Positions 3,287 to 38,585 of a DNA stretch of 64,000 bases are shown here, in pieces. Each line of letters opens with the position of its first letter. The first letter of the stretch is position 1. The translations under genes were made by a program, and so were the position numbers. The notes under the pieces were generated by a model that was not told where the DNA came from, ran no database searches, and worked only from the letters and a program-made list of their open reading frames with translations. Origin of the DNA: an uncultured bacterium (GTDB lineage: Bacteria; GCA-001730085); NCBI GenBank assembly GCA_964565945.1, contig CAZMGY010000021.1, forward strand, positions 44,300 to 108,299, given 5' to 3'.

Positions 3287-3363
3287 CGCGGGGTGGAGCA
3301 GACTGGAAGCTCGTTGGGCTCATAACCCAAAGGTCGAGGGTTCGAATCCCTCCCCCGCTACCA
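3287..3363 (+). tRNA. tRNA-Met (CAT), initiator type
   Basis: 77-nt cloverleaf read by hand: acceptor CGCGGGG/CCCCGCU with a 1-72 mismatch, D-stem GAGC/GCTC, anticodon stem with three G-C pairs next to loop CTCATAA (anticodon CAT), T-arm GAGGG-TTCGAAT-CCCTC, encoded CCA. Near-identical in layout to E. coli tRNA-fMet. Confidence 0.85.
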
Positions 3364-4477
3364 ACTCTATAGACGGCTGGCTAGAATAATTGTCATTGGC
3401 AACTAATCTGGCGAGCCCTTTTTTTATGTCTGCGTTTTTCATAGGATTCTCCTGTGAGGCTATGCTTAAAATACCGGCCAAAGAGCCGTGAAGATCAATT
3501 GATAGATCATCCTGCCCAGCTTTTGGGGTGAGGGTGATTTTCTCGATCAGCCCCCTTAAAATCAGCGCAGCTTCCCCTCTGTTTTCTTCTTGGTCTAAAG
3601 ATGCGCGTAAATCACTGATTTGCCTGCGATAGCGCTCAGCCATGGCAGGGTGAAGCATAGGCGCGGATTTTGGCGTGGCTTCGAGCAAGGTTTCCAACTC
3701 TTTGAGGCGCTCTGAGGCTCTCTCCAGATCATCTTTTATCAAATCCACGGCTACACCGTCTTTGATGGCCTGGATGATGTTCTCGCGCTCCTTAGCGAGT
3801 TTAGCAGCCTCTGCGCGGTAGCCCTTTAAGCTCTGATCATGCTGGCTTTGCAGCTTATTAAAGTGCTTCGTATATTCCGCGCAAAACACCTTCAAGAGAT
3901 CATCTCTCATGAGATGGGTTTGTAAGGCTCCGAGCACCAGAGCCTCGATGCGCTCACGTTTGATGCTCTTTTTATTGGCGCACACGCTAGAGCCTTTATT
4001 GCGGGATTGTGAGCAGCCATAGCGCTCAGAATTGATCTTGGCATAGCCACCGCCGCATATTCCGCATTTTAGTAGCCCAGAGAGCAGATAATTGGGGCGG
4101 TTATTGCGGTGCAGCCCCTTAAGGCTGGTATCAAGGGTCTTTTGACGGGATTTGGCAGCATCCCAAAGCTCCTGATCAACAATCCGTAAATCAGGCACAT
4201 CTTGCCTGATCCAATCCGCCTCATCGTTTAGGCGGGTAACGCGCTTGCCCGTAGCTGGGTCTTTGATAAAATGCTGGCGGTTCCAGATTAATTCCCCAAT
4301 ATAAAGATGGTTATTTAAGATGCCGGTTCCGCGCCTGCGATTACCATTGATGGTCGATTGCCCCCAGGCCTTGCCTGAGGGGGCAGGGATGCCGTCTTTG
4401 TTCAGCGCATCGGCAATTGCCTTGGGAGATTTATTTTTAAGGGCGTATTCTTCGAATATGCGCTTAACGATTTTGGC
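3320..4477 (-). CDS. large serine recombinase, C-terminal recombinase/zinc-ribbon portion (downstream of an in-frame stop)
   Basis: Reading frame is open from 4477 to 3320 and continuous with the 4478..5011 ORF except for one TAA at 4478-4480. Translation includes 'WGQSTINGNRRRGTGILNNHLYIGELIWNRQ' (recombinase-domain signature) and a Cys-rich 'CGICGGGY...CSQSRNKGSSVC' zinc-ribbon. The 3' end overlaps the tRNA 3' end. Confidence 0.7.
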   Translation of the reverse strand, partial: AKIVKRIFEEYALKNKSPKAIADALNKDGIPAPSGKAWGQSTINGNRRRGTGILNNHLYIGELIWNRQHFIKDPATGKRVTRLNDEADWIRQDVPDLRIVDQELWDAAKSRQKTLDTSLKGLHRNNRPNYLLSGLLKCGICGGGYAKINSERYGCSQSRNKGSSVCANKKSIKRERIEALVLGALQTHLMRDDLLKVFCAEYTKHFNKLQSQHDQSLKGYRAEAAKLAKERENIIQAIKDGVAVDLIKDDLERASERLKELETLLEATPKSAPMLHPAMAERYRRQISDLRASLDQEENRGEAALILRGLIEKITLTPKAGQDDLSIDLHGSLAGILSIASQENPMKNADIKKGLARLVANDNYSSQPSIELVAGEGFEPSTFGL

Positions 4478-5011
4478 TTAGATTTCGTTGATCTCCCGAT
4501 CACCGCGTATGGCCTCGCCCTCAGAGTTAAATTGCTTCACGACTTTATAGCCGTAAGCAATGCCGCCTCCAGATTTCCCTTTTTCAACGCGCCCGCGAAG
4601 CCCGCGCCGCGTTTTATCTGCAAGGTCTTTCAGGCACATAGCGTTCATCGTGCCTTTAAGGCCGATATGCAATGTTGAGATTTCACCTTCGGACAGAGTG
4701 ATGATTTTAACGCCAGCAAATTCCATGCGCTTATAGATACCGGCAATATCTTCCTGATCACGGGACAGGCGATCCAGCGCCTCGCAGATTAGAATATCAA
4801 ACTCACCGTTCATGGCAGCCGTTAGTAGCGATTGAATACCAGGGCGCATAAGTGATGCGCCTGATATTCCTGCATCGCTATAGCAGTTTCCTAAATCCCA
4901 GCCTTCGGCTTTGGCTTTTTCTGACGCGAGGCGGATTTGATCTTCAATCGAAGCATCGCTTTGAAGATCAGAGCTATATCTGGCATAGATGCAGGCGCGT
5001 AATTTTTTCAT
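4478..5011 (-). CDS. large serine recombinase, N-terminal resolvase/invertase catalytic domain (ends at in-frame TAA)
   Basis: 177 aa; 'CIYARYSSDLQ' catalytic-serine motif, then 'DILICEALDRLSRD' and 'KRMEFAGVKIITL', typical of the serine recombinase catalytic domain. Confidence 0.75.
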   Translation of the reverse strand: MKKLRACIYARYSSDLQSDASIEDQIRLASEKAKAEGWDLGNCYSDAGISGASLMRPGIQSLLTAAMNGEFDILICEALDRLSRDQEDIAGIYKRMEFAGVKIITLSEGEISTLHIGLKGTMNAMCLKDLADKTRRGLRGRVEKGKSGGGIAYGYKVVKQFNSEGEAIRGDREINEI

Positions 5012-5202: not shown

Positions 5203-5473
5203 ATAAGGGGCGAGAACAAGATAGACCTCGCCCCCGAGAGGGAATTGGCGCGAGCAGTGGGGCTGTAAGATGCAAAGACAGTGGGTGATAATGCGCTGGC
5301 TTTGCGTAAATTCGCGCCAAATAAAAAGGGGAACATATTGCCTTCACAAAATGTACCCCTAGACTTCATGCTAGGCAGCAAAAGCTTAATAAATCCTAAA
5401 GATGCACCGTCAAACATGGCTCTCACAGCCACATTCCAAGGAGTTATTAAGATATATTTAATGCTCATAGTGC

Positions 5474-18075: not shown

Positions 18076-19144
18076 TATTATTTCATTTGAAGCCGCTATT
18101 GCGGAGTCAGAACAATATAAAAAACGTCATTTATTGCTAGGCAATGGTTTTAGTATTGGCTGTCGAGCTGACATATTTCATTATGAGTCTCTTTTTGGGG
18201 AAGCTGATTTTTCGGCAATTCCTGAGGCTAAACAGGTTTTTGAATCTTTACAGACACAGGATTTTGAAGTTGCAATTCGCGCACTTGAGAATGGTTCAAA
18301 AATTCTACCTATCTATGTGCCCAATGATGACGCAAGCGTTCAGGCAATGAGTAATCATGCTATTGCGCTTAAAGATTTGTTAGTTGCCACAATTGCTGGC
18401 AACCATCCTCCTAATCCTAATGCAATAGATGATCCAGAGTTTTGGGCTTGCCGACAGTTTTTAAGTTATTTCCTCGCTTCGGATAAGGGAGGACATGTCT
18501 TCACTCTAAACTATGACTTATTACTGTATTGGGCATTGATGCATGATGACAATCCATTTGATGAGGAAGTGGTGGAGCTGAACAAGAATGATGGGTTCGG
18601 AAATGATGAAGATGATCCAGAAGCGGATTATGTTCTCTGGCAAGGTGAGACCTCCGCGCATAGTGCAAATATACTTTTTCTGCACGGTGCACTTCATCTA
18701 TTTGACTCGGGTGCAGAGCTACAGAAATATACTTGGGTTCGTAAGGGTGAACCATTGGTGGATCAAGCGCGCACTGCAATAGCTGCGAATAAATTCCCTC
18801 TTTTTGTCGCGGAAGGAACAAGTACACAAAAGAAAAACAAAATTCGCCATAACGCATATCTTTACCAGTGTTTTAAGGTTCTGACAGCCAACGCACAGAC
18901 TGGCACGCACTGTTTTTTCATATTTGGACATTCGTTAGCTGATAGTGATGACCACATCCTAAAACGTCTTGGTAAAGGCCGTTTTAAGAAATTATATGTA
19001 GGTATTTTTGGTGATGCGGATACGCCAGAAAATAGGAATGTGATTGCACGCGCAAATGCTATCGCAGCACTTAGACATGATAGGTATCCTCTTGAGGTGG
19101 TGTTTTTCGATTCCTCATCCGCTAATGTTTGGGGGAATGATTAA
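18068..19144 (+). CDS. DUF4917 / SIR2-like domain protein embedded in the type I R-M operon
   Basis: Gly-rich 'LLLGNGFSIG', 'LFLHGALHLFD' and 'IFGHSLADSDDHIL' resemble the SIR2-like/DUF4917 arrangement (from memory, not searched). AGGAGG RBS and GTG at 18068; the track ORF starts at 18032. Overlaps hsdS and hsdR stops/starts. Confidence 0.6.
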   Translation: MPDIISFEAAIAESEQYKKRHLLLGNGFSIGCRADIFHYESLFGEADFSAIPEAKQVFESLQTQDFEVAIRALENGSKILPIYVPNDDASVQAMSNHAIALKDLLVATIAGNHPPNPNAIDDPEFWACRQFLSYFLASDKGGHVFTLNYDLLLYWALMHDDNPFDEEVVELNKNDGFGNDEDDPEADYVLWQGETSAHSANILFLHGALHLFDSGAELQKYTWVRKGEPLVDQARTAIAANKFPLFVAEGTSTQKKNKIRHNAYLYQCFKVLTANAQTGTHCFFIFGHSLADSDDHILKRLGKGRFKKLYVGIFGDADTPENRNVIARANAIAALRHDRYPLEVVFFDSSSANVWGND

Positions 19145-22100: not shown

Positions 22101-22419
22101 GCCTGATAAGTTTGCAGATAATAAGCACGCACAAGCCTACTATGGTGTTTTGAAAATGTATGTTGGCGAAAACCTTTCTACCATAGATGAAGAACTATCT
22201 GACCGATGGGTGGGGCTTTCTTTCAATGTAGATGAGATTATTACGAATGCTATAGCCGAGCACTCAATAAATCCCCAAAACATTGAATCCGAAATTCGAA
22301 ACAAGCTACTTCCTATGATCTTTAGTGAGTGTAAGAAAGTAGGTTCAGGAATAGATCAGACTAAGGCAATAACTGAAAGAATTGTTCAGATTGTACGCGT
22401 AGGACTAAATCACTCATGA
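19144..22419 (+). CDS. hsdR: type I restriction enzyme R subunit (endonuclease/helicase)
   Basis: 1091 aa; helicase Walker A 'TTGSGKSFTM' and DEAD-box-like 'VLIDEGHRSQ'; start overlaps the upstream stop (TAATG). Confidence 0.92.
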   Translation: MALIPKFQEEYSAKIPALTLLHNLGWTFLSPEQALSARNGKTSEVVLREVLREELRKRRFTFAGKERVFSENAIDNVIAELCAPALNEGLGVANERIYNHLLYGISVKEFIDGKKVNPTIQIIDWDNVDNNSFLFTEEFSVLRTGEVESRRPDIVCFVNGLPFAVIEAKRPDGHTNKGLTIDEGISQNIRNQRNDEIPHLFAYSQLLFSINGADGRYGTQGTSKPFWAPWREEDISEGEFYILKNKALSSDAKDTLFSHRPKQDRKWYEELIVGGELAVTEQDKMLISLLSPSRLIEMTRYFVLFDKKIGKVAARYQQVFGIKRLIERINTKDNKGVRQGGVIWHTTGSGKSFTMVFLSKALILHGSLKQCRIVVVTDRVDLESQLSTTFSTGGELASKKDKAAAIATSGRMLAEQISKGNERIMFSIINKFAVAAKMQECHNLSSDIIVLIDEGHRSQGGENFIRMRNALPNAAFIAFTGTPLLKDDKTENKFGSIVHAYTMQRAVEDKAVTPLLYEERIPDLDVNERAIDSWFDRITEGLTDEQKTDLKKKFAKKGHLYQSEDRIRLIAYDIANHFVKNIDDGLKGQIACDSKLSAIKYKQFMDELGLFKSAVVMSAPDTREGNTDVDEATIHEVAKWWKENVGSQDEKSYTKNIVKRFEEDNDLKIIIVVDKLLTGFDEPRNTVLYIDKPLKEHSLIQAIARVNRLHEKKKFGLLIDYRGILAELDTTIAKYQDLASRTQGRFDIEDLEGLYQQMSTEYKKLPRLYKDLLAIFKNVKNKGDIEQLRQVIVPKVQEQHGEMVDINLKAREDFYDRLSEFANCLKVALQSASFYEDKSFTEQDRKHYKETVKQYSSLRQLAKADAGETVDYDEYAEQVKKLMDKHVVGVEVKEPDGVYEVGKMGKSDPKDWSEDKTRNETDIIKTRITRMIEQSLRDDPYAQEVFSKLLKQVIEEAETLFDHPLKQYMLFKEFEEKVEKREVDSLPDKFADNKHAQAYYGVLKMYVGENLSTIDEELSDRWVGLSFNVDEIITNAIAEHSINPQNIESEIRNKLLPMIFSECKKVGSGIDQTKAITERIVQIVRVGLNHS

Positions 22420-23165
22420 GGAATTTAGCTACACACAGGAATGGTTCAATTCAATATGGAGATACAGCCATTAATTTTTCTATTGAACCCAGAGCAACAG
22501 ATGCACCAAAAGTTTTAATAAAAGTACATCCAGATTGCCGCGTTGTAGCACTTGCACCACCGATGGCATCTCATGATGAAATTATGCAGGCGGTAAAGAA
22601 ACGAGCACGATGGGTTTGTAAACAAATGCGGTACTTTGATAAACAACGCGAAAATATTCTCCCGCGTCACTATGTTAGTGGCGAAAGTCATTTCTATCTT
22701 GGGCGTAGGCATCTATTAAAGGTTCAAGAAAATGCTCAAGATACTCCCAAGGTGAAGTTGCTACGGGGTGTTTTGGAAGTTCAAGTACGCAAAGTAAGCC
22801 CAGAAAAAATAAAAGCAATGCTTTTTGATTGGTATAGAGTTCGTGCTAAAGAAGTATTTGATCGTAGGCTAGAAGAAGTTGTTTCTAAAACATTGTGGGT
22901 AAATGATAAGCCATCTATTCACCTTCTTTCTATGCAGACGCAATGGGGGAGTTGCTCGCCGAAAGGTCAGTTGACAATTAATCCTCATTTGGTGAAAGCA
23001 CCAAGAGATTGTATTGATTATGTGCTACTTCATGAGCTTTGCCATATTGCAGAACATAATCATAGTGAACGGTTCTATCGGCTAATGAAGCAAGTTATGC
23101 CTCATTGGGAAAAAGTAAAAGAAAGACTCGATGGTATGGCTTACTTTTATTTGAACGATACTTAA
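22416..23165 (+). CDS. M48-family zinc metallopeptidase (DUF45/YgjP-like), R-M associated
   Basis: 249 aa; HExxH zinc motif in 'YVLLHELCHIAEHNHSERF'; ATGA overlap with the hsdR stop. Confidence 0.8.
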   Translation: MRNLATHRNGSIQYGDTAINFSIEPRATDAPKVLIKVHPDCRVVALAPPMASHDEIMQAVKKRARWVCKQMRYFDKQRENILPRHYVSGESHFYLGRRHLLKVQENAQDTPKVKLLRGVLEVQVRKVSPEKIKAMLFDWYRVRAKEVFDRRLEEVVSKTLWVNDKPSIHLLSMQTQWGSCSPKGQLTINPHLVKAPRDCIDYVLLHELCHIAEHNHSERFYRLMKQVMPHWEKVKERLDGMAYFYLNDT

Positions 23166-23283
23166 GGGTTTTCATTGATTACGCATTACTGGGAACTAAC
23201 GATTGCTTGATAAATGGCTATTCGCATAGTTTTTGTTAAAAATTGAGTGCTAACCAATAGCGGACATAAGCAAAGGAGATATC

Positions 23284-26200
23284 TTGGGGAAAAAAGAAGC
23301 AAGGCGCACTAAGTCAAAGTCAACACCGCGTCAAACAGGTGGGGCAGGATACGACTTCGAAGATTTGATTGCAGCCTGGATGATGGTGAAGATGCTGCGT
23401 GAGATTAGGTTGCCAGGTGTTGAGGAGTTTGGTACAGCGATTCAATGGCAAGCGGAAGTGTTAGGTTGGGAACAGATCGATGACCTTCTGGTTACATGTG
23501 TGGTTGAAGAAGAAAAGAAAAAGCAGCTAGCCATCTCTTGTAAAAGCAACATGCAAGTTAGTGGGTCTGGGCTTCCATTTGATTTTCTCAAAAATGCTTG
23601 GTCACTATGGATAAAAGGCGAGCCTTTTAATAAGGAAAATGATTGCATGATGTTGGTTCAGAAAGGCAGCAATCAAAATTTTTTTACTGCTTGGGCAGAC
23701 CTAAAATATTGGTGTTCTGAGGGCGATGTAGAAACGGCTCTAGCACGAATTACAGCTTCTCAGAAACATAGTAAAATATACAATGGCGTTAAGGCTCCTG
23801 ATAAAAGCAGTAATTATACAAACGAAGATACTATTGCGCTTATACGCAGTTTAGAAGTTATTCCTGCAGATTTTCATTTAGCTAGTTCGGAATACGAAGA
23901 CACTTCATTATCCCATTGTCGTGATCTTTTGCAGGATGGCTCTGAAGAGACTGCAAAAAAGCTATGGGACTGGCTTCTCAAGAAAGCTAAAGTCAAACGT
24001 ATCTCAGGTGGAACATTACAGCTATCAGAGTTGTGGCAAGAATTGGTTCCAGCATTTGATTTAAAAGACCATCCAAACTTTCTTTCATCATGGAAGTCTC
24101 TTAAAGCTATATCCGAAGAATATAAGAGATCAATCGAAATTGAATTGCCTAATGGTCATAGTGTCATAAGGCCTGCCGAAGAAGACCTGATAGAGCATCT
24201 TAGAGATGGTCCAATATGTATTGTATATGGTAGCTCTGGAAGGGGTAAATCGGCGGTTGTTAAATCTACTTTAGATAAGAAGCTATCTGATTGGAATCAG
24301 GTTTGGTTTTCTCCGGAAAACCTAGACTTAGCTTCAAGTGAAAGGACTCGCTCAGAAGTGGGATTGCTTAGACCTTTGCAGGATGTACTTGCTCACTCAT
24401 CGGAAGAAAAAAATGTCCTAATTATAGATTCTGCTGAGAGGATTAACCCCGATAGCAGAAAAATTGTAAAGTCGCTTATTTCCAACCTATTGATACACAA
24501 TGGCGAACAGAAGAGTCGTTTGAACTGGCGAGTTATCATTGTTGGGCAAACCGAGGCTTGGGCATCTGGCAATTTTCATGAAATTTCAGGACTCTCTTCT
24601 ATTCAGCCTATAGAAATTTCTTCCCTTGACCCTTCGGATGTCAGAGCAGCTTTGCATTCAAGCAATCACTTATCTTGGCTTGCTTCGGATAACGAAGCGC
24701 TTATAGCCTTAGGTAACTTGAAAACTTTGGCTTGGGTAATGCGAGCTGGAACCATTTTTCCAAAAGGGGGAATGAATAGCATATCGTTGCCTGCAATCGC
24801 TGATCGTTTATGGTCGTATTGGACAAAAGATAAAATAAAACTTCAGAATCTTCTGATGCAACTTGCTGAACGTGAAGCTCAATTTGAACGTAGCTTTCCT
24901 ATCAGTGGGTTTGGTATTGATGTAAGCCAAGCTCTTGATGAAGGTTTGGAATGCTTGCCACTACGAAAAAGAAAAGAGACTAATTCAATCGAGTTTGAGC
25001 ATGACCTGGGTGCTGATTGGGCAAGGTTTCAGCGTTTAAAAGAAATAAAAAATGACATAAGCTCTTGGGCACCATTTGCTAGCAACCCTCTCTGGCATAA
25101 TGCTTTGCGCATGATGGGGCAACTCCTATTACGAGAAAAAACTGAACAAGGAACACTATGGGATGTTGTTTATGATGAAGCAGAAAAAACAAAAGTTGAA
25201 AATCCTTTAGCAGCAGATATTCTCTTAGATTCTTTGTGCCTTGATCCATTTGCTGCGCATTATCTTAATGAGCGGTCGGATATACTTTTTGCAGATAACG
25301 GGGCTCGTTTAAACCGCTTATTAAAACGTTTTCATCATATAGCGACCGTTTCAAATGTCTCTAGCGAGTCCTTGGACATTGATCCCTCGCTAAAATTGTA
25401 TTTAGAAGACATGCAAAGGTTGCCAATCTATGGTCGTTGGCCACAAATTGCACAATTTCTTTCAGATCACAAAGAACAAGTTTCCAGCCTAATCTCACCA
25501 ACTATTTCAAAACTATGTGAGACTTGGCTTACAACAACACCTCTCTATCTTGATCCTGAGGCAAATACGCCGATGCCCTATAGAAAGGTATTTGCAGAGC
25601 TTGCTTTAAGCACGGTAAGGACTTTACAACTTGAGCAAAAGAAAGGGCACTTGTGGCTCACAGATGACAGCGAAAAGCCTCTTTATGGGGCAGCATTTGC
25701 GGCTGTAAACGATCTTCCTGACGAAGTCTGCGAATGGGCTTTAGAAATGGCCTGTAGAAGACCTTGCAAAAAAGAAATACCTGAAGCGCTTGCAGCCTAT
25801 CGAGAAGAAAGAAGAAAAGAACATAGAGAAAAATTGCGCACTGATAAGGCTTATCCTGAAAGGCACGAGCGTTTACGTTCAATGCCTTCCGGTATTTCAA
25901 GCCATAGAGATTTACCTCCATGGCCATTAGGGCCACAAGGTAGTGTAGATAATACTTTTCGAGATTATTGCTTGAACTCAAACTCCATGGCTAGGCTGAT
26001 GTATCTAAGGCCAGAAGTTGCAAGCGAGTGCCTTCTTGCAATGCTAATAGATTATTCGCGTAGCCCTCTCCGAGATGATTTAGGTCTAGTGTATAGTCAC
26101 ACAGGATACCCTACGGCATATTGGAAAAGTCCATTTTTCCAGTTTTTACAGTTGAATAGCACTATAGCCATGGATTCCCTTATTTCGCTCGTTAATTTTT

Positions 26201-28536
26201 GTACAGATCGATGGGCAGATGATTTTGAGAGCGATTATAGTCTAGAGGTAAGTCTACGAGATGGTCAAAAACAAAGTTTGAAAGGAAACGGACATGTTTT
26301 CTCCTGGTCTCAAGAAAGCTCCACATCTAACGGACAGCTCTACTGTGCGTTAGCAGCACTAGAAAAATGGATTTATATTGAAATTGATAAGGACGCAGAT
26401 GTAGAGCCTGCGCTCAAGAGACTTATCGAAAACTCAAATTCTGTTGCAATAATAGGCGTGCTCCTAAATGTCGGTAAATACAAACCAAGCTTATTTACAA
26501 GCGCATTACAACCTTTTTTAGGGGTATATGAATTCTATCAAGCCGATGACAACCGCCTTCTAGATGCCGGGCATTGGTATGATGCTGGGGCATGGCCGTG
26601 TGAGGGTGAAAAAATATTTGAAATGGCCAAAGAGTGGCACTTTGCTCCGCACCGGAAAATTCCGTTGCGGCAATTAGCTGTTCAACTTGCTCTCAGTGAT
26701 AAAGAGACAGCCTCTTTTATTAAGGAAGCTTCTGAAAGTTGGGAAACACATTCAGTCGAGGAAAAATATGATTTAGAGGTAAGGATATTAAAAGCTGAAC
26801 TTGATCCTGAAAATTATAAGCCAGAAAAAGACCAACAATCTGGGCAGACATTATTGAGGTGTTATTACCCAGACAAGCTACAGAAGGACATAGAAGATTT
26901 TCAGAAAAGAAAAAGTCCGAGATGGCATGCTGTTACTATACCTATTCAATGTGAAGAATTATTGGCTTCGTCTCATAACATTACTGATGAAGAGGCTGAG
27001 AGATTAGCTTCTGCACTCAATGTTGTTCCTATAGAAGAAGATGAAGAGAGCATCCTCGCGACAGAAGCGGCGATCGCAGCTACGTTGTTAATAAAGGCAC
27101 CTAGCTGGCTAGACAAAAACCCTGATCTTAAAAAGAAAACAAATGAAATTATTCAAAATATAATTTCTAGTATTGGAGACACCTTAGAATCTTTGAGAGC
27201 TACCGGACATCTTATGAGTGATAGGTCGCTTGCCTTTGCCACTCATGTTGTTGTTGAAGAATTTATAAACAACCCGTCCCATGATAGGGACGTAGATGCT
27301 TCTGTATTAAGAATTTTAACCAGTGGTGACAACCAGGCTGTCTTCATTTTGATGAATGCGGCTTATCAAAATAGAGATAAGCTAGGTGATCGCTGGTGGC
27401 GTCTCATACAAATATCAATCTTTTGTGCTGGACTTAATAGCCTTAGTCCGGGCTTTAGAGAAGATGAAGATAAATCGATTGAATTACGTTGGGCGCGTTG
27501 GTTGATATGGTTGCGCACCCGTGATTTAAACGTTTCAGTAAATGCAGAAGCTATTGACCCAATCGGATTAGCGGTTCGTGTGGATCGTTTAAAAATGGCT
27601 CGTATTAAACGGCTATTTGGAAAAGATACAGACGGACGTTTGCGTTACTATCATCGAGGGTTTTTTGGCCTTGAGACCTACACGTTGGATAAAATGTTTT
27701 CATGGATGCTGAGTGATCATGGGCAAGGGGCTGACAATAGTTCGGATGTGCGTCTCTTAACTCAAAAACTTTGGGTGTTCGAAGCTTGGAGAAAGCAAAA
27801 AAGCGAAGAAGCCAACGATGAAGATAATGACCGTGATAGCCTTCCAAGCGATTTAGGTTACTCGCTTCTTCAAAAGCTATCAAAGCTTATGCTGACTGCA
27901 CAAAAAGATGAAGCGTCTAAGATTTGGAAGCCGATACTTTCTATGGGCGTAGATGGTCATCATTCTATTGAGCATTTCATTGATGGGTGGCTGCTAGGAG
28001 TGGTTCAAACCAAAAATACAAACTCCCTTTCTCAGTTTTGGAGAGAATTAATTGAGTTTGCGCTCTTATCTCCCAACTGGTCTCCCAATAAATATTGGTA
28101 TAAAGGAGAAGAGTTATTTCGACATCTTTTAGGATTTGGCTTGATTAATCTTGCGGAGTTTGAAGGTGCTCAAAACATTATTTTCGAAATAAAGGATCTG
28201 TATAAACGTTGGGCTGATACACACCTTTCTCAGGAAGAGGAAAATATAGCAGGCTTTGCATATTTTCTTTCCTCTAAAGTGGGGGCACCTATTCGGTATG
28301 ATGGTCTGCTGTGGATCAGAGACTCCTTGCGACCTCCCAATCCTGCATATTGGCGTCGAATGGAAACCGGACGCTCTCTTGTTGATCTTTTGGATGTTAT
28401 CATTACCGAAGAAACTAAACAAATATCTTCAGATTCTGAGTTTCGCGATGCGTTATTGAGGGTTGCAGCACATTTGGCTGATAGGCAAGTTCCTATTGCA
28501 TTATTGTTGCAAGAGAAGATTCGCCAGGTGCATTAG
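23284..28536 (+). CDS. very large (1750 aa) P-loop NTPase of unknown function; candidate defense protein
   Basis: Single uninterrupted ORF, AAGGAG RBS and apparent TTG start; Walker A 'YGSSGRGKSAVVKS' near residue ~320 and Walker B-like 'VLIIDSAERI' ~60 aa later; long helical C-terminus; no family recognised by eye. Confidence 0.8.
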   Translation: MGKKEARRTKSKSTPRQTGGAGYDFEDLIAAWMMVKMLREIRLPGVEEFGTAIQWQAEVLGWEQIDDLLVTCVVEEEKKKQLAISCKSNMQVSGSGLPFDFLKNAWSLWIKGEPFNKENDCMMLVQKGSNQNFFTAWADLKYWCSEGDVETALARITASQKHSKIYNGVKAPDKSSNYTNEDTIALIRSLEVIPADFHLASSEYEDTSLSHCRDLLQDGSEETAKKLWDWLLKKAKVKRISGGTLQLSELWQELVPAFDLKDHPNFLSSWKSLKAISEEYKRSIEIELPNGHSVIRPAEEDLIEHLRDGPICIVYGSSGRGKSAVVKSTLDKKLSDWNQVWFSPENLDLASSERTRSEVGLLRPLQDVLAHSSEEKNVLIIDSAERINPDSRKIVKSLISNLLIHNGEQKSRLNWRVIIVGQTEAWASGNFHEISGLSSIQPIEISSLDPSDVRAALHSSNHLSWLASDNEALIALGNLKTLAWVMRAGTIFPKGGMNSISLPAIADRLWSYWTKDKIKLQNLLMQLAEREAQFERSFPISGFGIDVSQALDEGLECLPLRKRKETNSIEFEHDLGADWARFQRLKEIKNDISSWAPFASNPLWHNALRMMGQLLLREKTEQGTLWDVVYDEAEKTKVENPLAADILLDSLCLDPFAAHYLNERSDILFADNGARLNRLLKRFHHIATVSNVSSESLDIDPSLKLYLEDMQRLPIYGRWPQIAQFLSDHKEQVSSLISPTISKLCETWLTTTPLYLDPEANTPMPYRKVFAELALSTVRTLQLEQKKGHLWLTDDSEKPLYGAAFAAVNDLPDEVCEWALEMACRRPCKKEIPEALAAYREERRKEHREKLRTDKAYPERHERLRSMPSGISSHRDLPPWPLGPQGSVDNTFRDYCLNSNSMARLMYLRPEVASECLLAMLIDYSRSPLRDDLGLVYSHTGYPTAYWKSPFFQFLQLNSTIAMDSLISLVNFCTDRWADDFESDYSLEVSLRDGQKQSLKGNGHVFSWSQESSTSNGQLYCALAALEKWIYIEIDKDADVEPALKRLIENSNSVAIIGVLLNVGKYKPSLFTSALQPFLGVYEFYQADDNRLLDAGHWYDAGAWPCEGEKIFEMAKEWHFAPHRKIPLRQLAVQLALSDKETASFIKEASESWETHSVEEKYDLEVRILKAELDPENYKPEKDQQSGQTLLRCYYPDKLQKDIEDFQKRKSPRWHAVTIPIQCEELLASSHNITDEEAERLASALNVVPIEEDEESILATEAAIAATLLIKAPSWLDKNPDLKKKTNEIIQNIISSIGDTLESLRATGHLMSDRSLAFATHVVVEEFINNPSHDRDVDASVLRILTSGDNQAVFILMNAAYQNRDKLGDRWWRLIQISIFCAGLNSLSPGFREDEDKSIELRWARWLIWLRTRDLNVSVNAEAIDPIGLAVRVDRLKMARIKRLFGKDTDGRLRYYHRGFFGLETYTLDKMFSWMLSDHGQGADNSSDVRLLTQKLWVFEAWRKQKSEEANDEDNDRDSLPSDLGYSLLQKLSKLMLTAQKDEASKIWKPILSMGVDGHHSIEHFIDGWLLGVVQTKNTNSLSQFWRELIEFALLSPNWSPNKYWYKGEELFRHLLGFGLINLAEFEGAQNIIFEIKDLYKRWADTHLSQEEENIAGFAYFLSSKVGAPIRYDGLLWIRDSLRPPNPAYWRRMETGRSLVDLLDVIITEETKQISSDSEFRDALLRVAAHLADRQVPIALLLQEKIRQVH

Positions 28537-29100: not shown

Positions 29101-29558
29101 TTTTACCTCCTGTTTGTGGAGGTCGCGTTTATTCACGACCTTTGTTAAAGCCGCTTGTGCGCTGGAAAAATGGACTGCACCTTTGGTCGAAATATATGGA
29201 GAAGCGTGGCAAATCTCATGCTTGCAGTTCTAATGATCTCAAGTGCTTAAATAGGTTTTATAAAAGTCTGATAAAAACGCCCCTCATACAAAAGAGTAAG
29301 AGAGGCTGAATAACTAAATTGTTGGCTCACTTGAAAAAAATAAGAGAGCCAGTTGGTTTAATAGAAAAGATGAAGGACGCTGCGCCCCCTCAAATTCAAG
29401 AATAATGACGGTTTCCATTTGGGTAAGTCTCAAATAGACCCTCCGCAATTTTTCTGGATTTTTTCACCCCCGCCTAGTCGCCCTAGTCGGCAGAAGTTCA
29501 GGCGCGAGGCAAAAACGCTTCGCTAAGAACTTCAAAACCGAATTTAGGAGATAATAAA

Positions 29559-30071
29559 ATGAGTGCAGAAATTAGAATTTATGTGGCATGTTTGGCAGCG
29601 TATAACGGCGGTAGATTGCATGGCGTTTGGATTGACGCAACCGATGAGCTGGACGATATTCAAGAGCAAGTAAATATGATGCTAAAAGAAAGCCCAGAGC
29701 CAGACGCAGAAGAATGGGCGATACATGATTACGAGGGTTTTGGTGGTTATAGCGTTAGCGAATATTCAGGGTTTGAAGAGCTTCACGATGTTGCGTCTTT
29801 TATTGAAGAATATCCAGAAATTGGTGGGGAGCTTTTAGATCATTGCTCAGACCTTGAAGAAGCCAGGAAAGCCATAGAAGAAAGCTATGCAGGATGCCAT
29901 AAATCACTTGCAGATTTTGCCGAGGAAACAACCGAGGAAACAACCGAAATTCCTGAGCATTTACGGTATTACATTGATTATGAAAAAATGGGGCGTGATA
30001 TGGAAATGAGCGGAGACGTTTACACAATTGAAACAGGTTATGAGGAAGTGCATATATTTTGGAATCATTAA
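29559..30071 (+). CDS. ardA: antirestriction protein ArdA
   Basis: 170 aa, acidic; 'IYVACLAAYNGGRLHGVWIDATD', 'EEWAIHDYEGFGG' and 'LRYYIDYEKMGRDMEMSGDVYTIE' parallel the conserved ArdA blocks (e.g. Tn916 ArdA). Confidence 0.85.
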   Translation: MSAEIRIYVACLAAYNGGRLHGVWIDATDELDDIQEQVNMMLKESPEPDAEEWAIHDYEGFGGYSVSEYSGFEELHDVASFIEEYPEIGGELLDHCSDLEEARKAIEESYAGCHKSLADFAEETTEETTEIPEHLRYYIDYEKMGRDMEMSGDVYTIETGYEEVHIFWNH

Positions 30072-30095
30072 AATAAATAATTATCCAAACATTTA

Positions 30096-30119
30096 AGGGC
30101 TCTTCGGAGCCTTTTTTTT
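30096..30119 (+). terminator. rho-independent terminator downstream of ardA
   Basis: GGGCTC-TTCG-GAGCCT hairpin (UUCG tetraloop) followed by a T8 run. Confidence 0.6.
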
Positions 30120-30349
30120 AGTGCTTAAAAAAATCGCCACCGAAAGATGGTACTTTTCGGCGGTTGGTGAGCGTTTCGTCGCTCAATCTCGACCACTGTT
30201 TTGCCAGTGGATTACGACAAGGGTAATATTTATTGTTTGGTAGTTATATGTTTATAGGTGTAACCACTTCTATAATTTGGTGCATTAAGATAGTCTAGTT
30301 ATGTGAGGGGTTAGATATGAAGATAATTGAAGTATCAGGAATATAGAAA

Positions 30350-31393
30350 ATGAAAACTGGTCGAAATGATCCTTGTCCTTGTGGTAGTGGAAAAAAATAT
30401 AAGCATTGTTGCCTATCTGTAGCGCGCGCAGTAAATGATGAATTAAGTGATTTGTTGTCAGAACAAGAATTTGACTCAATAGAAGAGATGCAGGCAGCAG
30501 CAGATACCCTTGTGGCAAAACAAAACCTGAAAGCACAAGATTATTTTCTTGGGCTGTCTTCTGAACAAGTTTATCGAATGCTTAATTTTGCCTATGACAC
30601 ACCTGAGCTTTTTCAATTTTCTGATCAACTATCCGTAGAGCCTGACGCACCCATCTTGATGTTAATGAATGGTATTGTTTCAGCTATTGATGACAAGGGA
30701 TTAACGGCAACAAAAGCCAGGGGTGGTCTGCCTCAAAAACTCTGTAGAGAAATATGGGATGATTACAGCAAATTATATGCTGATGATACTTTCGCTTCCT
30801 TTCACAAGGTCAATAAAGAAGATGATTTTTTTGAATTACATGTAACGCGCGTTATTCTTGAGTTGGCAGGATTTCTTCGCAAAACCAAGGGGCGCTTCTA
30901 TTTAACCAAAAAATATCAAAAGCTCGCCAGCAAGTCAGGGTTAAAAGGTCTTTATCCCATTATTTTTAAAACTTATTGTAGTGAGTTTAATTGGGGCTAC
31001 TGGGATCATTACAATGATGTTCTCTTTATACAGCAATCGTTTTTATTTACTCTGTATTTGTTAAAGCAACATGGCGAGAAGATGACTTTTACTTCGGTCT
31101 ATGAGGATGATTTTCTGCGAGCCGTCCCTATGGTGGTTGATAAAATGGAAGGGTCGTCTTATTCCACCCCAGAAGAAGACTTGCGCCGTTGTTATTCCTC
31201 TAGGGCGATTAAGCGCTTTTTAGTGTTTTTAGGGTTAGCAGAGCTAGAAGTCATTAAGAACAATAAACATTATGACTATCATTATAAGATCAAAAAAACA
31301 CCGCTTTTTGATGCTGTGGTACATTTCAATTTTTTAGGCTCAAAAATCGGTAAGACAATTCATTCAAGTGTTCACAGCGATCATTTGCATTGA
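30350..31393 (+). CDS. SEC-C motif domain protein
   Basis: 347 aa; N-terminal 'DPCPCGSGKKYKHCC' SEC-C metal-binding motif; remainder unrecognised. Confidence 0.55.
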   Translation: MKTGRNDPCPCGSGKKYKHCCLSVARAVNDELSDLLSEQEFDSIEEMQAAADTLVAKQNLKAQDYFLGLSSEQVYRMLNFAYDTPELFQFSDQLSVEPDAPILMLMNGIVSAIDDKGLTATKARGGLPQKLCREIWDDYSKLYADDTFASFHKVNKEDDFFELHVTRVILELAGFLRKTKGRFYLTKKYQKLASKSGLKGLYPIIFKTYCSEFNWGYWDHYNDVLFIQQSFLFTLYLLKQHGEKMTFTSVYEDDFLRAVPMVVDKMEGSSYSTPEEDLRRCYSSRAIKRFLVFLGLAELEVIKNNKHYDYHYKIKKTPLFDAVVHFNFLGSKIGKTIHSSVHSDHLH

Positions 31394-31625
31394 GCGGGGA
31401 AAATAGATCAATAAGTTTGAAACTAGCTGCATATGCACACTTAGAGTGTGCAAAAGCGCAGATATTTAAACTTACCTGGTGCCTGTTGGTTAGAAACCAT
31501 TTTAAAAAAACATAATAAAAACAAGGGAAAATGGTTCTGGCCCCTAATAACGTCATGTTAATAGAAGTAAAAACTTGACGATATTGGTGGTATAGAGTAC
31601 GCTATTAAGGTAAGGAGAAATAGCC

Positions 31626-32351
31626 ATGAGTATTGCACAAGCCATTGAAAATTCGGTTAAATCCATGCCTTCTGGCCAGATTTTTGGCTATCAGGAGTTG
31701 CCTAGCTACGCTAAATCACCAGGGGCTGTGATTAAGGCGATTAGCCGTCTGGTGGCTGATAAGAGGTTGGAACGGTTTTCTAAGGGCAAGTTTTACGTAC
31801 CCAAAAAAGGCATGTTAGGTGCTAGAAAACCCTCAGATAGTGAGTTGATCCGTTCAATGTTGTACAAGGACGGGCGTTTGCGTGGTTATGTGACTGGCCT
31901 ATCTCTCTATAATCAACTGGGTCTTACAACGCAGGTGCCGCGCACAATTACGGTTGCCTATAACGGTGGTCGTCAGAAAAAAGAATATGGAACAATTCGT
32001 ATTAAGACGGTCGTTACACGTGTTCCGATTAAGGAAAAGGACGTTAAGCTTCTTCAATATTTGGACGCGCTTAAAGACATAAAAAAAATTCTAGATTCTG
32101 ATGTAAATCTTTCTCTTAAGATTATTCGCGGCTATATATCTAAGTTATCTGATCGTGAGCGTAGTCGTTTGGTGGAACTGGCGCTAAATTACTATAACCC
32201 TCAAGTCAGAGCATTGGTTGGCTTATTGTTCACAGATTTAAAACTCTCGGTTCCAAGCTCTTTGGCTCACTCACTTAACCCAACAACGACCTATAAGCTT
32301 AAGCTGGATCGCTCAATGTGGCCAATGGCCAAAGAATGGAATATCCAATAA
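31626..32351 (+). CDS. AbiEi-like antitoxin / regulator (partner of the AbiEii nucleotidyltransferase)
   Basis: 241-aa gene with GGAG RBS; stop overlaps the AbiEii start (TAATG). Assignment is mainly by operon partner; the sequence may equally be a DUF6088-type partner. Confidence 0.5.
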   Translation: MSIAQAIENSVKSMPSGQIFGYQELPSYAKSPGAVIKAISRLVADKRLERFSKGKFYVPKKGMLGARKPSDSELIRSMLYKDGRLRGYVTGLSLYNQLGLTTQVPRTITVAYNGGRQKKEYGTIRIKTVVTRVPIKEKDVKLLQYLDALKDIKKILDSDVNLSLKIIRGYISKLSDRERSRLVELALNYYNPQVRALVGLLFTDLKLSVPSSLAHSLNPTTTYKLKLDRSMWPMAKEWNIQ

Positions 32352-33151
32352 TGAATTTACATGAGGATGATGAAGCATTTGCAGAATTAGTCGCTGTAAC
32401 CGCTGAAACAATAGGCTTGCCGCAGGTCTATGTTGAAAAAGATTATTGGGTTACAAAAGCGCTTAAGAATTTATCAGAATCCAAGCATGTAGGTGAAGTG
32501 GTCTTTAAGGGTGGTACATCTTTATCCAAGGCCTATAGGTTAATTGATCGTTTTTCAGAAGATATTGATTTGGCTGTACTTGCAGGCGGCAAAGGTGATT
32601 CTGCACGTAAGAAACTACTTAAGAGCGTAGAGACTACTGCCAGCGAAGGCCTGATATGTGTGAAAGATGATGCACGGGAATCCAAAGGCTCAAAATTTCG
32701 TAAAACAGTTTATCAATATCCGCGAAGTATAGAAGGTGGTGACTTTGGGCAAGCATCTCCTGAATTATTGATCGAGGTTAATACATTTACCAATCCTGAG
32801 CCTTTTGAAACGCGGGAGCTGCAAACATTTATTGCCGAAGTTCTTACTGAAAAAGGCGAAACAGATTTAATAGCACAATATGTGCTTGAAGGTTTTCCTG
32901 TAAATGTATTGTCGGTCAGGCGTACCCTTGTTGAGAAAATGCTTGGTGTAATTAAAGATAGTTATCATGAAGACCCCGTTGCAAGGATGTCTGTTCGAAT
33001 TCGACACATATATGATGTTTGTCTGATATTAAAGAATGATGAATATCGCGACTTTATTGCTAGCGATGAATTTATGTCGCTATGTAATATTTGTATTGAG
33101 GATGAAAAGGCAGGGTTTTTGCCCCCTCTGATTGTTTCGATACACCATTAG
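32351..33151 (+). CDS. nucleotidyltransferase AbiEii/AbiGii toxin family protein (DUF1814), apparently frameshifted near the 3' end
   Basis: 'VVFKGGTSLSKAYRLIDRFSEDIDL' is the DUF1814/AbiEii hallmark; a second frame (33106-33303) continues protein-like after a T5C5 tract. Confidence 0.7.
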   Translation: MNLHEDDEAFAELVAVTAETIGLPQVYVEKDYWVTKALKNLSESKHVGEVVFKGGTSLSKAYRLIDRFSEDIDLAVLAGGKGDSARKKLLKSVETTASEGLICVKDDARESKGSKFRKTVYQYPRSIEGGDFGQASPELLIEVNTFTNPEPFETRELQTFIAEVLTEKGETDLIAQYVLEGFPVNVLSVRRTLVEKMLGVIKDSYHEDPVARMSVRIRHIYDVCLILKNDEYRDFIASDEFMSLCNICIEDEKAGFLPPLIVSIHH

Positions 33152-33306
33152 TAGATGCGCCATTATTTTTCAGATTTAAGGATTGGAGTTCCTCTCTTAA
33201 TAATATATATACCGGCGCATTTTCAGATTTGGTGTATGGTGATCTACCAGCAATGGACGAGATTGAAGAAACGTTTAATTTTATCAAAGAGAATTTGAAG
33301 TAATTA

Positions 33307-33627
33307 CTAAAAAATCCTTGATATTGGGAATTCACTATCTAATAAATTTAAAATATCTTGTGGCAGATATTCCATTGGATCGTCATAGCCAATTCGATAT
33401 TGAGGATTATCAACTGGCATATATTCAATTCCATCTTTGCAAACTGAGTAGATGATTGTGTTATGCGGAGACCACCGCGAATATTTCACGGCGTAACCGG
33501 CATCTTCTAGAACCTGCGCAATGATCGGTGTTTTAACGTCGCCATCGCCATCATCAAAACCAAACTTAGAAAAAGCCTCGCTCCAGTGATAAGAATTGCC
33601 GCAGGATTTACATTTCAAATCGTTCAT
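33307..33627 (-). CDS. hypothetical protein
   Basis: 106-aa ORF with a 'CKSCGN' Cys pair; no recognised family. Confidence 0.35.
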   Translation of the reverse strand: MNDLKCKSCGNSYHWSEAFSKFGFDDGDGDVKTPIIAQVLEDAGYAVKYSRWSPHNTIIYSVCKDGIEYMPVDNPQYRIGYDDPMEYLPQDILNLLDSEFPISRIF

Positions 33628-33641
33628 ATTCTTTCCTTTCC

Positions 33642-34160
33642 TTAAATCTCCGGCTCAAAATCGATATCTTGAGCAGGGGTATCAAAGCCCATGCCTTGCT
33701 CCTGGCTTTTGCCGTGGGATTTACTGCGCTCTGCAACGCGGGCTTTCTTCTTCTCATGGGATTTTAGGTGCGATAAATCGCGGATTAACTTGGCACGCTC
33801 TTCCTCATGTTTTTTATGTAGCGAGTTAAACTGTATTTGTAGTTTCTGGCGCATTTCTAATTGCTTATGGATCAGCTCTTCACGCTCTGCTTGGTCGCGC
33901 TTATGCGCCTGCCAGGTTTCACCGTCATTAGCTTTGCGCTGCTTCCAATAGGAGCCATTTAGCTTGTCCCATAGACCTTTAAAACCTTTGCGTATCTGCG
34001 ATACCCTAAGGGCTTCTTCCTTTTGCCAGCGGGATTCCTGATAGGCGTTTTGCGCGGCTCGGTCTTTTCGGTGCTGCAATGTCATAGCGGCCTTGGTTTT
34101 AAGTAGAGGCACTAATTCTTTATTGTGATCTTTATCCAGCTCGCCGATGAATTTCTTCAA
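33642..34160 (-). CDS. mobilization relaxase, C-terminal charged portion (split gene)
   Basis: Highly charged K/R/E/Q-rich coiled-coil-like sequence; its frame stays open upstream to ~34278 and overlaps the end of the N-terminal relaxase ORF in a +1 frame. Confidence 0.5.
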   Translation of the reverse strand: MKKFIGELDKDHNKELVPLLKTKAAMTLQHRKDRAAQNAYQESRWQKEEALRVSQIRKGFKGLWDKLNGSYWKQRKANDGETWQAHKRDQAEREELIHKQLEMRQKLQIQFNSLHKKHEEERAKLIRDLSHLKSHEKKKARVAERSKSHGKSQEQGMGFDTPAQDIDFEPEI

Positions 34161-34272
34161 TAGGGTTGATGTTTTTCCACTGATCTTATTCTTAACTGTT
34201 TCAACGCTCGGCAGGTCTTCTGCTTTGCCAAGACGTTTTTCTATTTTTTTTTCTTCGCTGTGAGCTGGCGGG

Positions 34273-34962
34273 TTAGAGAATAAACCTCACCGTGTATATA
34301 TCTATAGCTACAAAGCCGCGCTTATCTCCTTTGGCCAGCCAGTAGCCAGATTCCAGGAGCGCTTGCTCAAAGCTTTTCTTATCATCCGACCTTGCCCAGC
34401 ATTGCTGTAAGTTGGCCTTGATGGTCTTGGGGTTTTGATTTGTGCGCGCCGCTTGCTGCCACTCAGCCCTTGTGAAGTTGAGCGGGTTTTTCTGGCTCTT
34501 ATCAATAAAGCCTTTGGGCAGTTGCCAACCATGATCTAAATAAAGCTGTTTTGATATATCTTTGAGCTTATTTTTAAAAAAGGGCTGATCAATTGCCTTC
34601 ATTTCTTTGGCATCAATGCGGCTCCAAACACAATGCGCATGACGGCGGCCATGTTTTTCATGAAAGACAATGACGCGGGGCTGATTTTCAAGCCCCAGCT
34701 TTTTCTCTATTTTTGTTAGTGCATCCTCAAATGCAGCTACCAGCACTTTTTCATTTTGTGGTGGTGATAGCGATAGGGAGAACATGAAACGTGAACATCT
34801 TGTACCTTTGCTAATCGCATGGATTTCATTAAGTGCGCCGCCTATTGTTTCACTGGCAAAACCCGATACTTCATGCACCCGCACATGCTCATTTTGCTCA
34901 CCATTCATGAGGTGCTTTGCCATTTGGCGTGCGCCGCCGCGTTTACTCGCCTTGATGATCAT
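34273..34962 (-). CDS. mobilization relaxase N-terminal nuclease domain (MobA/MobL-like)
   Basis: Start 'MIIKASKRGGARQMAKHLMNGEQ...' and three-His motif 'VIVFHEKHGRRHAHCVWSRID' typical of MOB relaxases. Confidence 0.65.
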   Translation of the reverse strand: MIIKASKRGGARQMAKHLMNGEQNEHVRVHEVSGFASETIGGALNEIHAISKGTRCSRFMFSLSLSPPQNEKVLVAAFEDALTKIEKKLGLENQPRVIVFHEKHGRRHAHCVWSRIDAKEMKAIDQPFFKNKLKDISKQLYLDHGWQLPKGFIDKSQKNPLNFTRAEWQQAARTNQNPKTIKANLQQCWARSDDKKSFEQALLESGYWLAKGDKRGFVAIDIYTVRFIL

Positions 34963-35353
34963 CTTCTTTTTCCTGCAAACCCAGAGCGCGGGTGAGGGTA
35001 TTTCTAATCCAGTGAACCGAGCGGCTGGCCTCATTTAAGGCCTTTAGCACATCTATATTCACAGGCAGGGAACCTGAATTTGCAGCCCTAGCAAGCTGAT
35101 TGATATTGTTAGCTATACGAGATTGCCCAAAGGCAGCTAGCAGTCTGGCTAATTCTTTTTGGTCTTTGACGGGCTTCTTGCCCCGTGTTCTATTTTTGGG
35201 GATTTCATCACCAAAGAGAAGAAAGCGAATATAGGCAGATAGCGGGCGATCACCTGCGGCCAGCTCTAATGTCTTTCTTTCATCCTCAGTGAAGCGAATA
35301 CAATATGGGGAGGGGTATGTATATTTTTGATCCGTAGGGGTTTTTTTAGACAT
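34943..35353 (-). CDS. mobC: mobilization protein MobC-like
   Basis: 'LARLLAAFGQSRIANNINQLARAANSG' resembles the MobC signature; sits immediately upstream of, and overlaps, the relaxase gene. Confidence 0.55.
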   Translation of the reverse strand: MSKKTPTDQKYTYPSPYCIRFTEDERKTLELAAGDRPLSAYIRFLLFGDEIPKNRTRGKKPVKDQKELARLLAAFGQSRIANNINQLARAANSGSLPVNIDVLKALNEASRSVHWIRNTLTRALGLQEKEDDHQGE

Positions 35354-35783
35354 TTTTCTGTCCCCCTGTTGCCGGAAGGGCAGAGTTACTGGTAGAATAC
35401 GCATCCTTTGAAGAGCGGACTCCCTCTATTGCAGATAGTAGCGCCTCTTCTTGTAGCGGATCAGCAGCAATATCATAGCAGTTACCAGCGGTAGATAGCG
35501 TTGGCAACCAGCCCCCGCTACCAAATATAATCTATACCACAGTAGCCTTTAAGCTTATTGTGGTTTTTTTGTTTATGCTCAAATTCGGTTTGGGCTAACA
35601 CTGTGCTAACAAAATATTTTTACTCTTCTTTATTGTTATCTCACCCACTCTTTAATTTTTAACCTTTTTGTAACTTCAATTTATTAAATTCCTTATTACA
35701 AAAAAACTTTTAAATAAAAAGTCCCCCTGAGTAGATATGATATAATCACTTAAATTATGCACTGTTATAAGGATTAAACTTTA

Positions 35784-36119: not shown

Positions 36120-36161
36120 TAACCCAAAGGCCGAGGGTTCGAATCCCTCCCCCCGCTACCA
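36120..36161 (+). repeat. attR-like direct repeat of the tRNA-Met 3' end
   Basis: TAACCCAAAGGCCGAGGGTTCGAATCCCTCCCCCCGCTACCA matches tRNA positions 3323-3363 with one substitution and one extra C. Confidence 0.8.
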
Positions 36162-36187
36162 AAAATTCATTTTTAAAGGAGACAGCT

Positions 36188-37327: not shown

Positions 37328-38003
37328 CTACCAAATAAAGAATACTTTGTTAGCTGGGTTTTTATATGTATCGAATGTTGAATAGGCCTTATCTCTGCCG
37401 TTGTCTTTGAATGCCCCAGTGCTCCCCATCAAGTTTTGGTGACTAAATTTAGAGAAACTGCTTTGCCTCCAAGGCTTGCCCGAGGCGGTAATAATACCCT
37501 CTTTGTTTAGTTCAGCCACTATCGCTTTTGGGGATTTATTTTTATAGGCGTAATCTTCAAATATGTGCCAACTGATACTGGCTTGCTCCCCGATGATTTC
37601 ACAATCACCTCGAATAGCCTCACCTTCGGAATTCTGTTTTTTCATCACCTTATAACCATAAGTTAAACCACCGCTGGATTTTCTTTTTTCAACACGTTCT
37701 CGTAATCCACGGCCTGTTTTATCGGCAAGGTTTTTGAGGAAACAGGGCATTCATCGTTCTTTTTAGCCTAATATGAAGTGCTAAGATTTTACCTTTGCTG
37801 AGCGTAAAAATTTAAACTCCTGCAAATTCCATGCGTTTAAACAGACCCGCAATATTTTCCTGATCACGAAAAAGATAATTGAACGCCTCGGCTACCAAGA
37901 TATCAAATTCATCATTCATGGCAGCCGCCATAAGGGCTTGAATACCTGGACACAAAAGGGAGAGGCCCCCAGATATTCCAGCATCGATGTATGACATACC
38001 CAT
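37328..38003 (-). pseudogene. degraded large serine recombinase (remnant paralog of the island recombinase)
   Basis: Two short ORFs (37812-38003, 37328-37750) align to residues ~45-320 of the 3320-5011 recombinase ('DILVAEAFNYLFRDQENIAGLFKRMEFAGV' vs 'DILICEALDRLSRDQEDIAGIYKRMEFAGV'); catalytic N-terminus missing, frame broken. Confidence 0.6.
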
Positions 38004-38585
38004 GTTCCACCCTTGGCGTTGTGCTTTTTCGTTGCAAAGTCTGATTTGATCTTCGCAAGCCTAAAAAAGAACTGGTACAGTAGTAGCATTATCAGACTCG
38101 TAGTGAAACTTAACAGGATATTTTAAATTACATAGTGATATTTTATAATGGCCTGCGTTTGCATTCTCATTTGGGTTATATCAGCCCCAATGACTACGAA
38201 GCAGTAACATGGCCAAACTGAGTAAAGTTGCTTAACTGGCCTGTACACATCCATTAGACCATTCCATTTAGAAGATGATGTGCTAAACCATAGCAGCCGT
38301 TCTCACTTTAGGACTTACATGACCCAATACAATGGATGTGACCAATTAGCAAAAATCGTTATATTTTAGAAAAATGTAATGCTTGAGAGTGTATGGGTAG
38401 ATTTTAGTTTATTTTGCAAATACAGCTACAATCATATATACTCGTCAAGGATTATTTATACTTGGAGATACGTTGTGGACATGTCTAAGTTCTCTGAGCT
38501 TTGATTCACAGCAAAGCTTCAAATAAAAAGTTAAGGAACTTTCAAAGAAAATAGCTTTTATCATCAAAAACAGAAGGATGTCATT

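Follow-up and report, generated by a model that had tools for sequence, protein, structure and literature searches.

The locus described here raises the question of whether an AbiE toxin-antitoxin pair, carried on an integrated element of an uncultured bacterium, still includes a working toxin gene and, if it does not, whether the break is a genuine mutation, a switch built into the gene or an error of sequencing. The stretch of DNA that we analysed, referred to here as the window, comprises 64,000 nucleotides of contig CAZMGY010000021.1 (assembly GCA_964565945.1), and all coordinates are positions within it (Table 1). A first-pass annotation, made from the nucleotide sequence, had described abiEii as frameshifted near its 3´ end and had offered three readings: a recent frameshift that inactivates or alters the toxin, a slippage-prone switch, or a sequencing error. 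Our data support the first of these. We consider it likely, with a probability of roughly 0.85, that abiEii is a genuine and fairly recent pseudogene, which arose through a 1-nt deletion as part of the ordinary decay of the element that carries it.

Table 1. Features of the abiE locus and of the element around it, given as positions in the window.
Feature	Position	Strand	Basis and remarks
tRNA-Met, integration target	3287..3363	+	ARAGORN
Large serine recombinase pseudogene	3320..5011	-	CAA to TAA nonsense at 4478-4480 cuts the Resolvase domain (177 aa) from the rest
Left 13-bp att core CCCCCGCTACCAA	3352..3364	.	Direct repeat; tRNA-Met 3´ end
abiEi antitoxin gene, intact, 241 aa	31626..32351	+	PADLOC AbiEi PDLC02226, E 2.5e-48; Pfam DUF6088
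abiEii, in-frame part	32351..33118	+	Codons 1-256, ...EDEKAGF; Pfam PF08843; PADLOC AbiEii PDLC02292; invariant G54, G55, S69, D71, K196, D222
T5 run, site of the 1-nt deletion	33116..33120	+	Alignment of the window and L001-L005 (T5) with L006-L010 (T6)
Out-of-frame tail LPPLIVSIHH and premature TAG stop	33119..33151	+	
Stranded 3´ part of abiEii, -1 frame	33121..33303	+	60 codons and stop; last four helices of the C-terminal lobe
Relaxase pseudogene, two ORFs	33642..35034	-	+2 (TA) and -1 indel; L006 ortholog is an intact 427-aa ORF
Right 13-bp att core CCCCCGCTACCAA	35512..35524	.	Direct repeat

The two genes are tightly arranged, with the TAA stop codon of abiEi overlapping the ATG of abiEii (ATAATG, 32349-32353), and the same pair is found at five related loci (L006-L010). 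The abiEii reading frame, from 32351 to 33151, yields a product of 266 aa that ends in ...AGFLPPLIVSIHH (equivalently, ...EDEKAGFLPPLIVSIHH); the length of 267 given previously counts the stop codon. Translation reproduced both the stop at 33151 and the reported continuation from 33106 to 33303, an open frame that reads KGRVFAPSDCFDTPLVDAPLFFRFKDW...FIKENLK (KGRVFAPSDCFDTPLVDAPLFFRFKDWSSSLNNIYTGAFSDLVYGDLPAMDEIEETFNFIKENLK in full, followed by a stop) and lies in the -1 (equivalently, +2) frame relative to abiEii. One extra base fuses the two frames and gives an AbiEii of 317 aa.

The lesion had been assigned to a T5C5 tract. The tract exists as described, with GGG at 33113-33115, five T residues, G at 33121 and five C residues at 33122-33126, and the T run was indeed hit, but the C run has to be removed from the claim. 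The closest intact ortholog (P0001; 317 aa, 98% identical, from loci L006-L010) has GCA GGG TTT TTT GTC CCC where the window has GCA GGG TTT TTG CCC CC, and in the DNA alignment GGGTTTTTTG stands opposite GGGTTTTTG. The alignment thus sets T6 and GTCCCC in this ortholog against T5 in the window, which places the lesion in the T run, as a 1-nt deletion from a former T6, with the C run uninvolved. In the intact gene, the T6 run encodes a conserved Gly-Phe-Phe, the two phenylalanine codons being Phe253-Phe254 of the intact protein. The stranded 3´ part differs from the intact ortholog at two residues (A/V and F/S).

Comparison with homologs bears out the frameshift, since both the repaired protein and the isolated downstream frame match full-length AbiEii proteins. 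A search of a 5.8-billion-protein collection with the repaired 317-aa protein retrieved 7041 homologs, and almost all of the best 120 are 316-330 aa in length and cover the query completely, with identities as low as 62%. More than 100 full-length AbiEii homologs of this size align with the repaired protein from end to end, in agreement with the proposal that a single added base restores a normal length. When the stranded part (33121-33303) is taken alone, it matches residues 260-316 of a full-length homolog that is 75% identical (P0017), with an E value of 4e-28, and the downstream open frame is therefore not a product of chance. A comparison with orthologs had been set beforehand as a test of the frameshift, and here the orthologs do not end at residue 266; among the best 120 of the 7041 homologs, no natural protein ends at the point of truncation in the window. 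Similarly, for eight of the nine relatives that are closest among species-representative genomes, the match extends over the full protein and stays in one reading frame. The few shorter matches are unlike the gene in the window: P0074 lacks its N-terminus, and P0058 has an internal deletion and keeps the conserved C-terminus. The abiEii allele of the window is absent from the genome-contig collection, where the best matches are 74-75% identical (in Kangiella and Thiohalomonadales, for example), and a megablast search with 31400-33700 gave no match in the plasmid collection. A relative with 81% identity, on a Thiogranum MAG contig (L019, 1250-1852), matches residues 1-201 only and may be a further member of the toxin family that was disrupted independently.

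What the deletion removes, and what it leaves, can be read from the conserved features of the protein. The product of the window matches Pfam PF08843 (E 6.4e-30, 105 bits for a cut-off of 22.5) and the PADLOC AbiEii model PDLC02292 (E 6.9e-79); no NCBIfam model matches either AbiEi or AbiEii. The definitions of the nucleotidyltransferase (NTase) motifs, including hG[GS]x15DhD for motifs I and II, were taken from Dy et al., 2014 (PMC3985639), and the position of the phosphoacceptor from a 2026 structure paper (bioRxiv 10.64898/2026.01.19.700257). Motif I corresponds to G54-G55 and motif II, exactly 15 residues on, to D71-I-D73 (FKGGTS...DID); motif III is K196, motif IV is D222, and S69 is the candidate phosphoacceptor. 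All four motifs and this serine lie upstream of the frameshift. In an alignment of 64 sequences, the residues marked in Table 1 are invariant and D73 is found in at least 90%.

The lost part is also conserved. Whereas the intact ortholog covers positions 1-282 of the 283 in PDLC02292, the truncated product covers 1-231, such that about 18% of the profile is missing, and ten columns of the lost part are invariant in the 64-sequence alignment (L267, A270, P271, F273, W279, Y287, F291, L294, V295 and P300). In an AlphaFold2 model of the intact ortholog (mean pLDDT 90.6, pTM 0.88), the break coincides with the end of helix 239-254, and four helices in the C-terminal lobe, 260-264, 271-287, 290-294 and 302-316, belong to the lost part. 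Over its full length, the model aligns with MenT3/TglT (Rv1045) and MenT4 (Foldseek probability 1.00, E about 6e-6, TM 0.58-0.64); a sequence search of the PDB gave no significant match, the only weak one being to AbiGII (9hlo_B, E 0.037). The protein encoded in the window belongs to the AbiEii family by descent, in truncated form, and the complete bi-lobed fold with its C-terminal helices is absent from it. Without the four conserved C-terminal-lobe helices, the 266-aa protein would most likely be misfolded, unstable or inactive as a tRNA-modifying toxin.

One alternative accepts the mutation as real and takes the 266-aa protein to remain active, perhaps in altered form, as a toxin or defence effector that an intact AbiEi keeps in check. 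The retention of the four catalytic motifs and the phosphoacceptor serine would suit this explanation, as would the fixation of the allele in all carriers found (the window and five further assemblies) and the condition of abiEi, which has the length of its L006 ortholog and an omega of 0.195. These points have to be set against the removal of ten invariant positions and four packed helices with nearly a fifth of the family profile, against the lack of a homolog with the same end among the best 120 of 7041, and against the lesions in the recombinase and relaxase nearby, which argue for neutral decay. We found no published C-terminal truncation of an AbiEii or MenT toxin in the papers that we consulted. 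On balance, we regard an active truncated toxin as unlikely.

A second alternative, which we judge to be very improbable, is that the T run serves as a deliberate switch, either as a phase-variable ON/OFF tract or as a site where programmed -1 slippage, ribosomal or transcriptional, would give both the 266-aa and the 317-aa protein. The lesion does fall within a homopolymer, and a -1 shift would restore the frame, with the stranded 3´ part still intact. However, five or six T residues are short for a contingency tract, and every assembly of the allele has T5, with no length polymorphism among near-identical copies and no T6 variant in the protein collection or the JGI metagenomes. The T run is not conserved in relatives, which have TTC TTT (L011 and L018) or T7 (GGT TTT TTT, L014), nor is the layout in two ORFs, given that the homologs of 316-330 aa, numbering more than 100 among the best 120 of 7041, are single ORFs. 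The zero frame, GCA GGG TTT TTG CCC, lacks an in-register X XXY YYZ slippery heptamer, and downstream (33110-33210) the predicted folding is no stronger than that of shuffled sequences (MFE -13.8 kcal/mol, mean after shuffling -16.2, z = +0.81), which gives no sign of a stimulatory RNA structure. In addition, two other genes of the element, encoding the recombinase and the relaxase, carry plain inactivating lesions. A milder version, in which T5/T6 would be a low-frequency reversible switch, or a site of transcriptional or ribosomal slippage, by which a minority of cells regain the 317-aa toxin, has an equally slim chance of being correct; if it were true, the switch would keep an Abi toxin mostly OFF, as a form of bet-hedging for an abortive-infection system that a mobile element carries.

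The T5 allele is documented well beyond the window. Five Logan assemblies of separate SRA runs, with accessions in three separate ranges (SRR12008128, SRR12008134, SRR12008135, SRR19987513 and SRR30621489), all have T5 and differ from the window by 0-1 SNP across abiEii, and three of these five loci match window positions 29351-35541 at 99.87-99.98% identity. The truncated 266-aa protein (P0003) is on record from seven contigs, and a 226-kb NCBI contig is given as a source of it. In the sister lineage (L006-L010), T6 was assembled consistently in five other samples. The 5.8-billion-protein collection contains no 317-aa protein that is more than 98% identical, and the P0001 and P0003 clusters have one member each. 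A search of JGI metagenomes for the exact DNA pattern, T5 or T6 in the background of the allele, found nothing. Although homopolymers are well known for spurious indels and the downstream frame is undamaged, the presence of the same allele in five independent SRA assemblies makes a sequencing or assembly error in a truly intact gene the least probable of the explanations that we considered, and we have discarded this part of the first-pass annotation.

For the favored reading, in which abiEii is a recent pseudogene, the pattern of substitutions gives an indication of age. Upstream of the shift, abiEii differs from its L006 ortholog by 19 synonymous and 4 non-synonymous substitutions (omega 0.056), and we conclude that purifying selection acted strongly on the gene while most of this divergence built up. 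In the stranded part there are 1 synonymous and 2 non-synonymous substitutions; because this part has no stop codon and only these three differences, the lesion is young. Three substitutions are too few for a statistical demonstration of relaxed selection downstream of the shift. The change from Ser to Phe at residue 274 (intact numbering) is found only in the window, the homologs compared and the alignment consensus having Ser, and, as a single observation, it fits relaxed constraint.

The events probably proceeded as follows. Replication slippage took one T from the T6 run in the Phe-Phe codons, and the resulting shift exchanges the last 64-66 residues for the nonsense tail LPPLIVSIHH and strands the true 3´ end in the -1 frame. 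The truncated product keeps the NTase catalytic motifs, without the four conserved helices of the C-terminal lobe. The abiEi gene, encoding the antitoxin/repressor, stays intact, as expected for the 'safe' order of toxin-antitoxin decay, and the loss of abiEii forms part of a wider decay of the 32-kb element at tRNA-Met, with the recombinase and relaxase also inactivated.

The element that contains the abiE pair extends from 3365 to 35511 (about 32.15 kb). Empty sites in other SRA runs (L095, L096 and L100) join 3364 directly to 35512, and a related element (L006) has a circular or attP-like junction at 5274-5286. The genes on either side are chromosomal, encoding enolase, Tgt, a Na+/H+ exchanger and an LPS-core cluster; the best named relative of Tgt (66% identical) belongs to 'PVC group bacterium (ex Bugula neritina AB1)'. 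Besides AbiE, the element encodes a large serine recombinase, a TraG-like coupling protein, a type I restriction-modification system, a 1750-aa STAND-type NTPase, ArdA, a SEC-C/Y4jL_N protein, a relaxase and MobC. Because no type IV secretion genes are present among the annotated ORFs, several of which have no family match, the element looks like an integrative mobilizable element.

Judged from its genes, the element is immobilised, and the abiEii frameshift is one of at least three predicted inactivating lesions that it carries. The nonsense allele of the recombinase is also present in SRR12008128 (L103). In the relaxase, alignment and the gene calls of L001-L003 compared with L006 resolve a part of 216-253 aa and a part of 172 aa, with a 1-nt deletion in an A-rich run. 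The recombinase of L006 has a TAA of its own, at a different Gln codon and in one assembly only, and the stops in the window and in L006 appear to be two independent nonsense mutations in related elements. These two in-frame TAA codons at Gln positions of the recombinases also raised the possibility of stop-codon recoding. We set this aside because the stops are at different sites, each opposite CAA in the other lineage, which is the pattern expected of simple C to T nonsense mutation, and because other genes of the window end normally. What looked like a third recombinase lesion, a deletion in L007, is a 100-N scaffold gap.

A number of further observations concern the ends of the element and its neighborhood. 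The contigs of L001-L003 end at window position 35541 and that of L103 at 3335, exactly 30 nt across the respective att core, and 30 nt is one k-1 length if the Logan assemblies used k = 31. Such ends suggest a branch in the assembly graph, with genomes that have the island and genomes that lack it in the same samples, and this coexistence could reflect a mixture of strains or excision. Just upstream of tgt, at 36120-36162, there is a second partial tRNA-Met 3´ end that is 95% identical to 3323-3364, and beyond tgt, at 37463-38054, there is a recombinase-like remnant with about 71% identity to 4358-4945. These two sequences probably remain from an earlier integration event at this locus.

Other observations relate to the cargo. 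Defence genes occupy 14734-28536 and include the type I restriction-modification genes (hsdS/hsdM/hsdS, DUF4917 and hsdR) and a gene for a YgjP-like protein; the 1750-aa ORF (23284-28536) has weak STAND NTPase and Avs4-like matches, far under the Avs4 family cut-off. A tyrosine-integrase-like ORF with DUF6538 and Phage_int_SAM_5 domains (10641-11933, minus strand) lies inside this serine-recombinase element and could be the trace of a second insertion, nested within the first, by which the restriction-modification and STAND genes arrived. The anti-restriction gene ardA is at 29559-30071, and the SEC-C/Y4jL_N gene, between ardA and abiEi at 30350-31393, is missing from the related element L006. 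Also missing from L006 is a 106-aa ORF without a family match (33307-33627), which is convergent with abiEii, its stop codon and the end of the restored abiEii frame lying 3 nt apart.

Our findings mainly serve the correct annotation of the locus, and the abiEii pseudogene makes no open question testable. The locus should be described as an abiEii pseudogene with an orphan, intact abiEi; it is not a functional AbiE defence system, and it should therefore be excluded from the defence-system counts of the genome. It also provides a clean example of the order expected for toxin-antitoxin decay, in which the toxin decays first while the antitoxin persists. The retained abiEi is possibly an anti-addiction or regulatory gene.

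Three comparisons place the locus among known systems. Like the AbiE systems of Streptococcus agalactiae and Lactococcus lactis (PMC3985639), which have been reclassified as Type VII (bioRxiv 10.64898/2026.01.19.700257), the pair in the window is bicistronic, with an AbiEi-type antitoxin upstream of a DUF1814/PF08843 NTase toxin and with overlapping stop and start codons. The likeness extends to an exact fit to hG[GS]x15DhD, to the Lys of motif III and the Asp of motif IV, and to a Ser two residues before motif II, as with the T65 phosphoacceptor. Unlike in the studied systems, the toxin gene is broken by a 1-nt deletion, with the last 66 residues lost; the proteins are only distantly related in sequence, and the antitoxin belongs to Pfam DUF6088. 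The second comparison is with MenT3/TglT (Rv1045) and MenT4 of Mycobacterium tuberculosis, DUF1814 tRNA nucleotidyltransferase toxins that are the best structural matches and share the bi-lobed NTase fold, although their sequence identity to the intact ortholog is only 13-16%. The Mycobacterium MenT genes form intact chromosomal toxin-antitoxin loci, in contrast to the broken abiEii of the window. The third comparison is one of condition: decayed toxin-antitoxin loci leave an orphan antitoxin on a degenerating integrated element, the toxin having been lost first. In the window, too, the toxin is lost and the antitoxin kept, on an element with a dead recombinase and a dead relaxase, and the locus is an ordinary case of this category.
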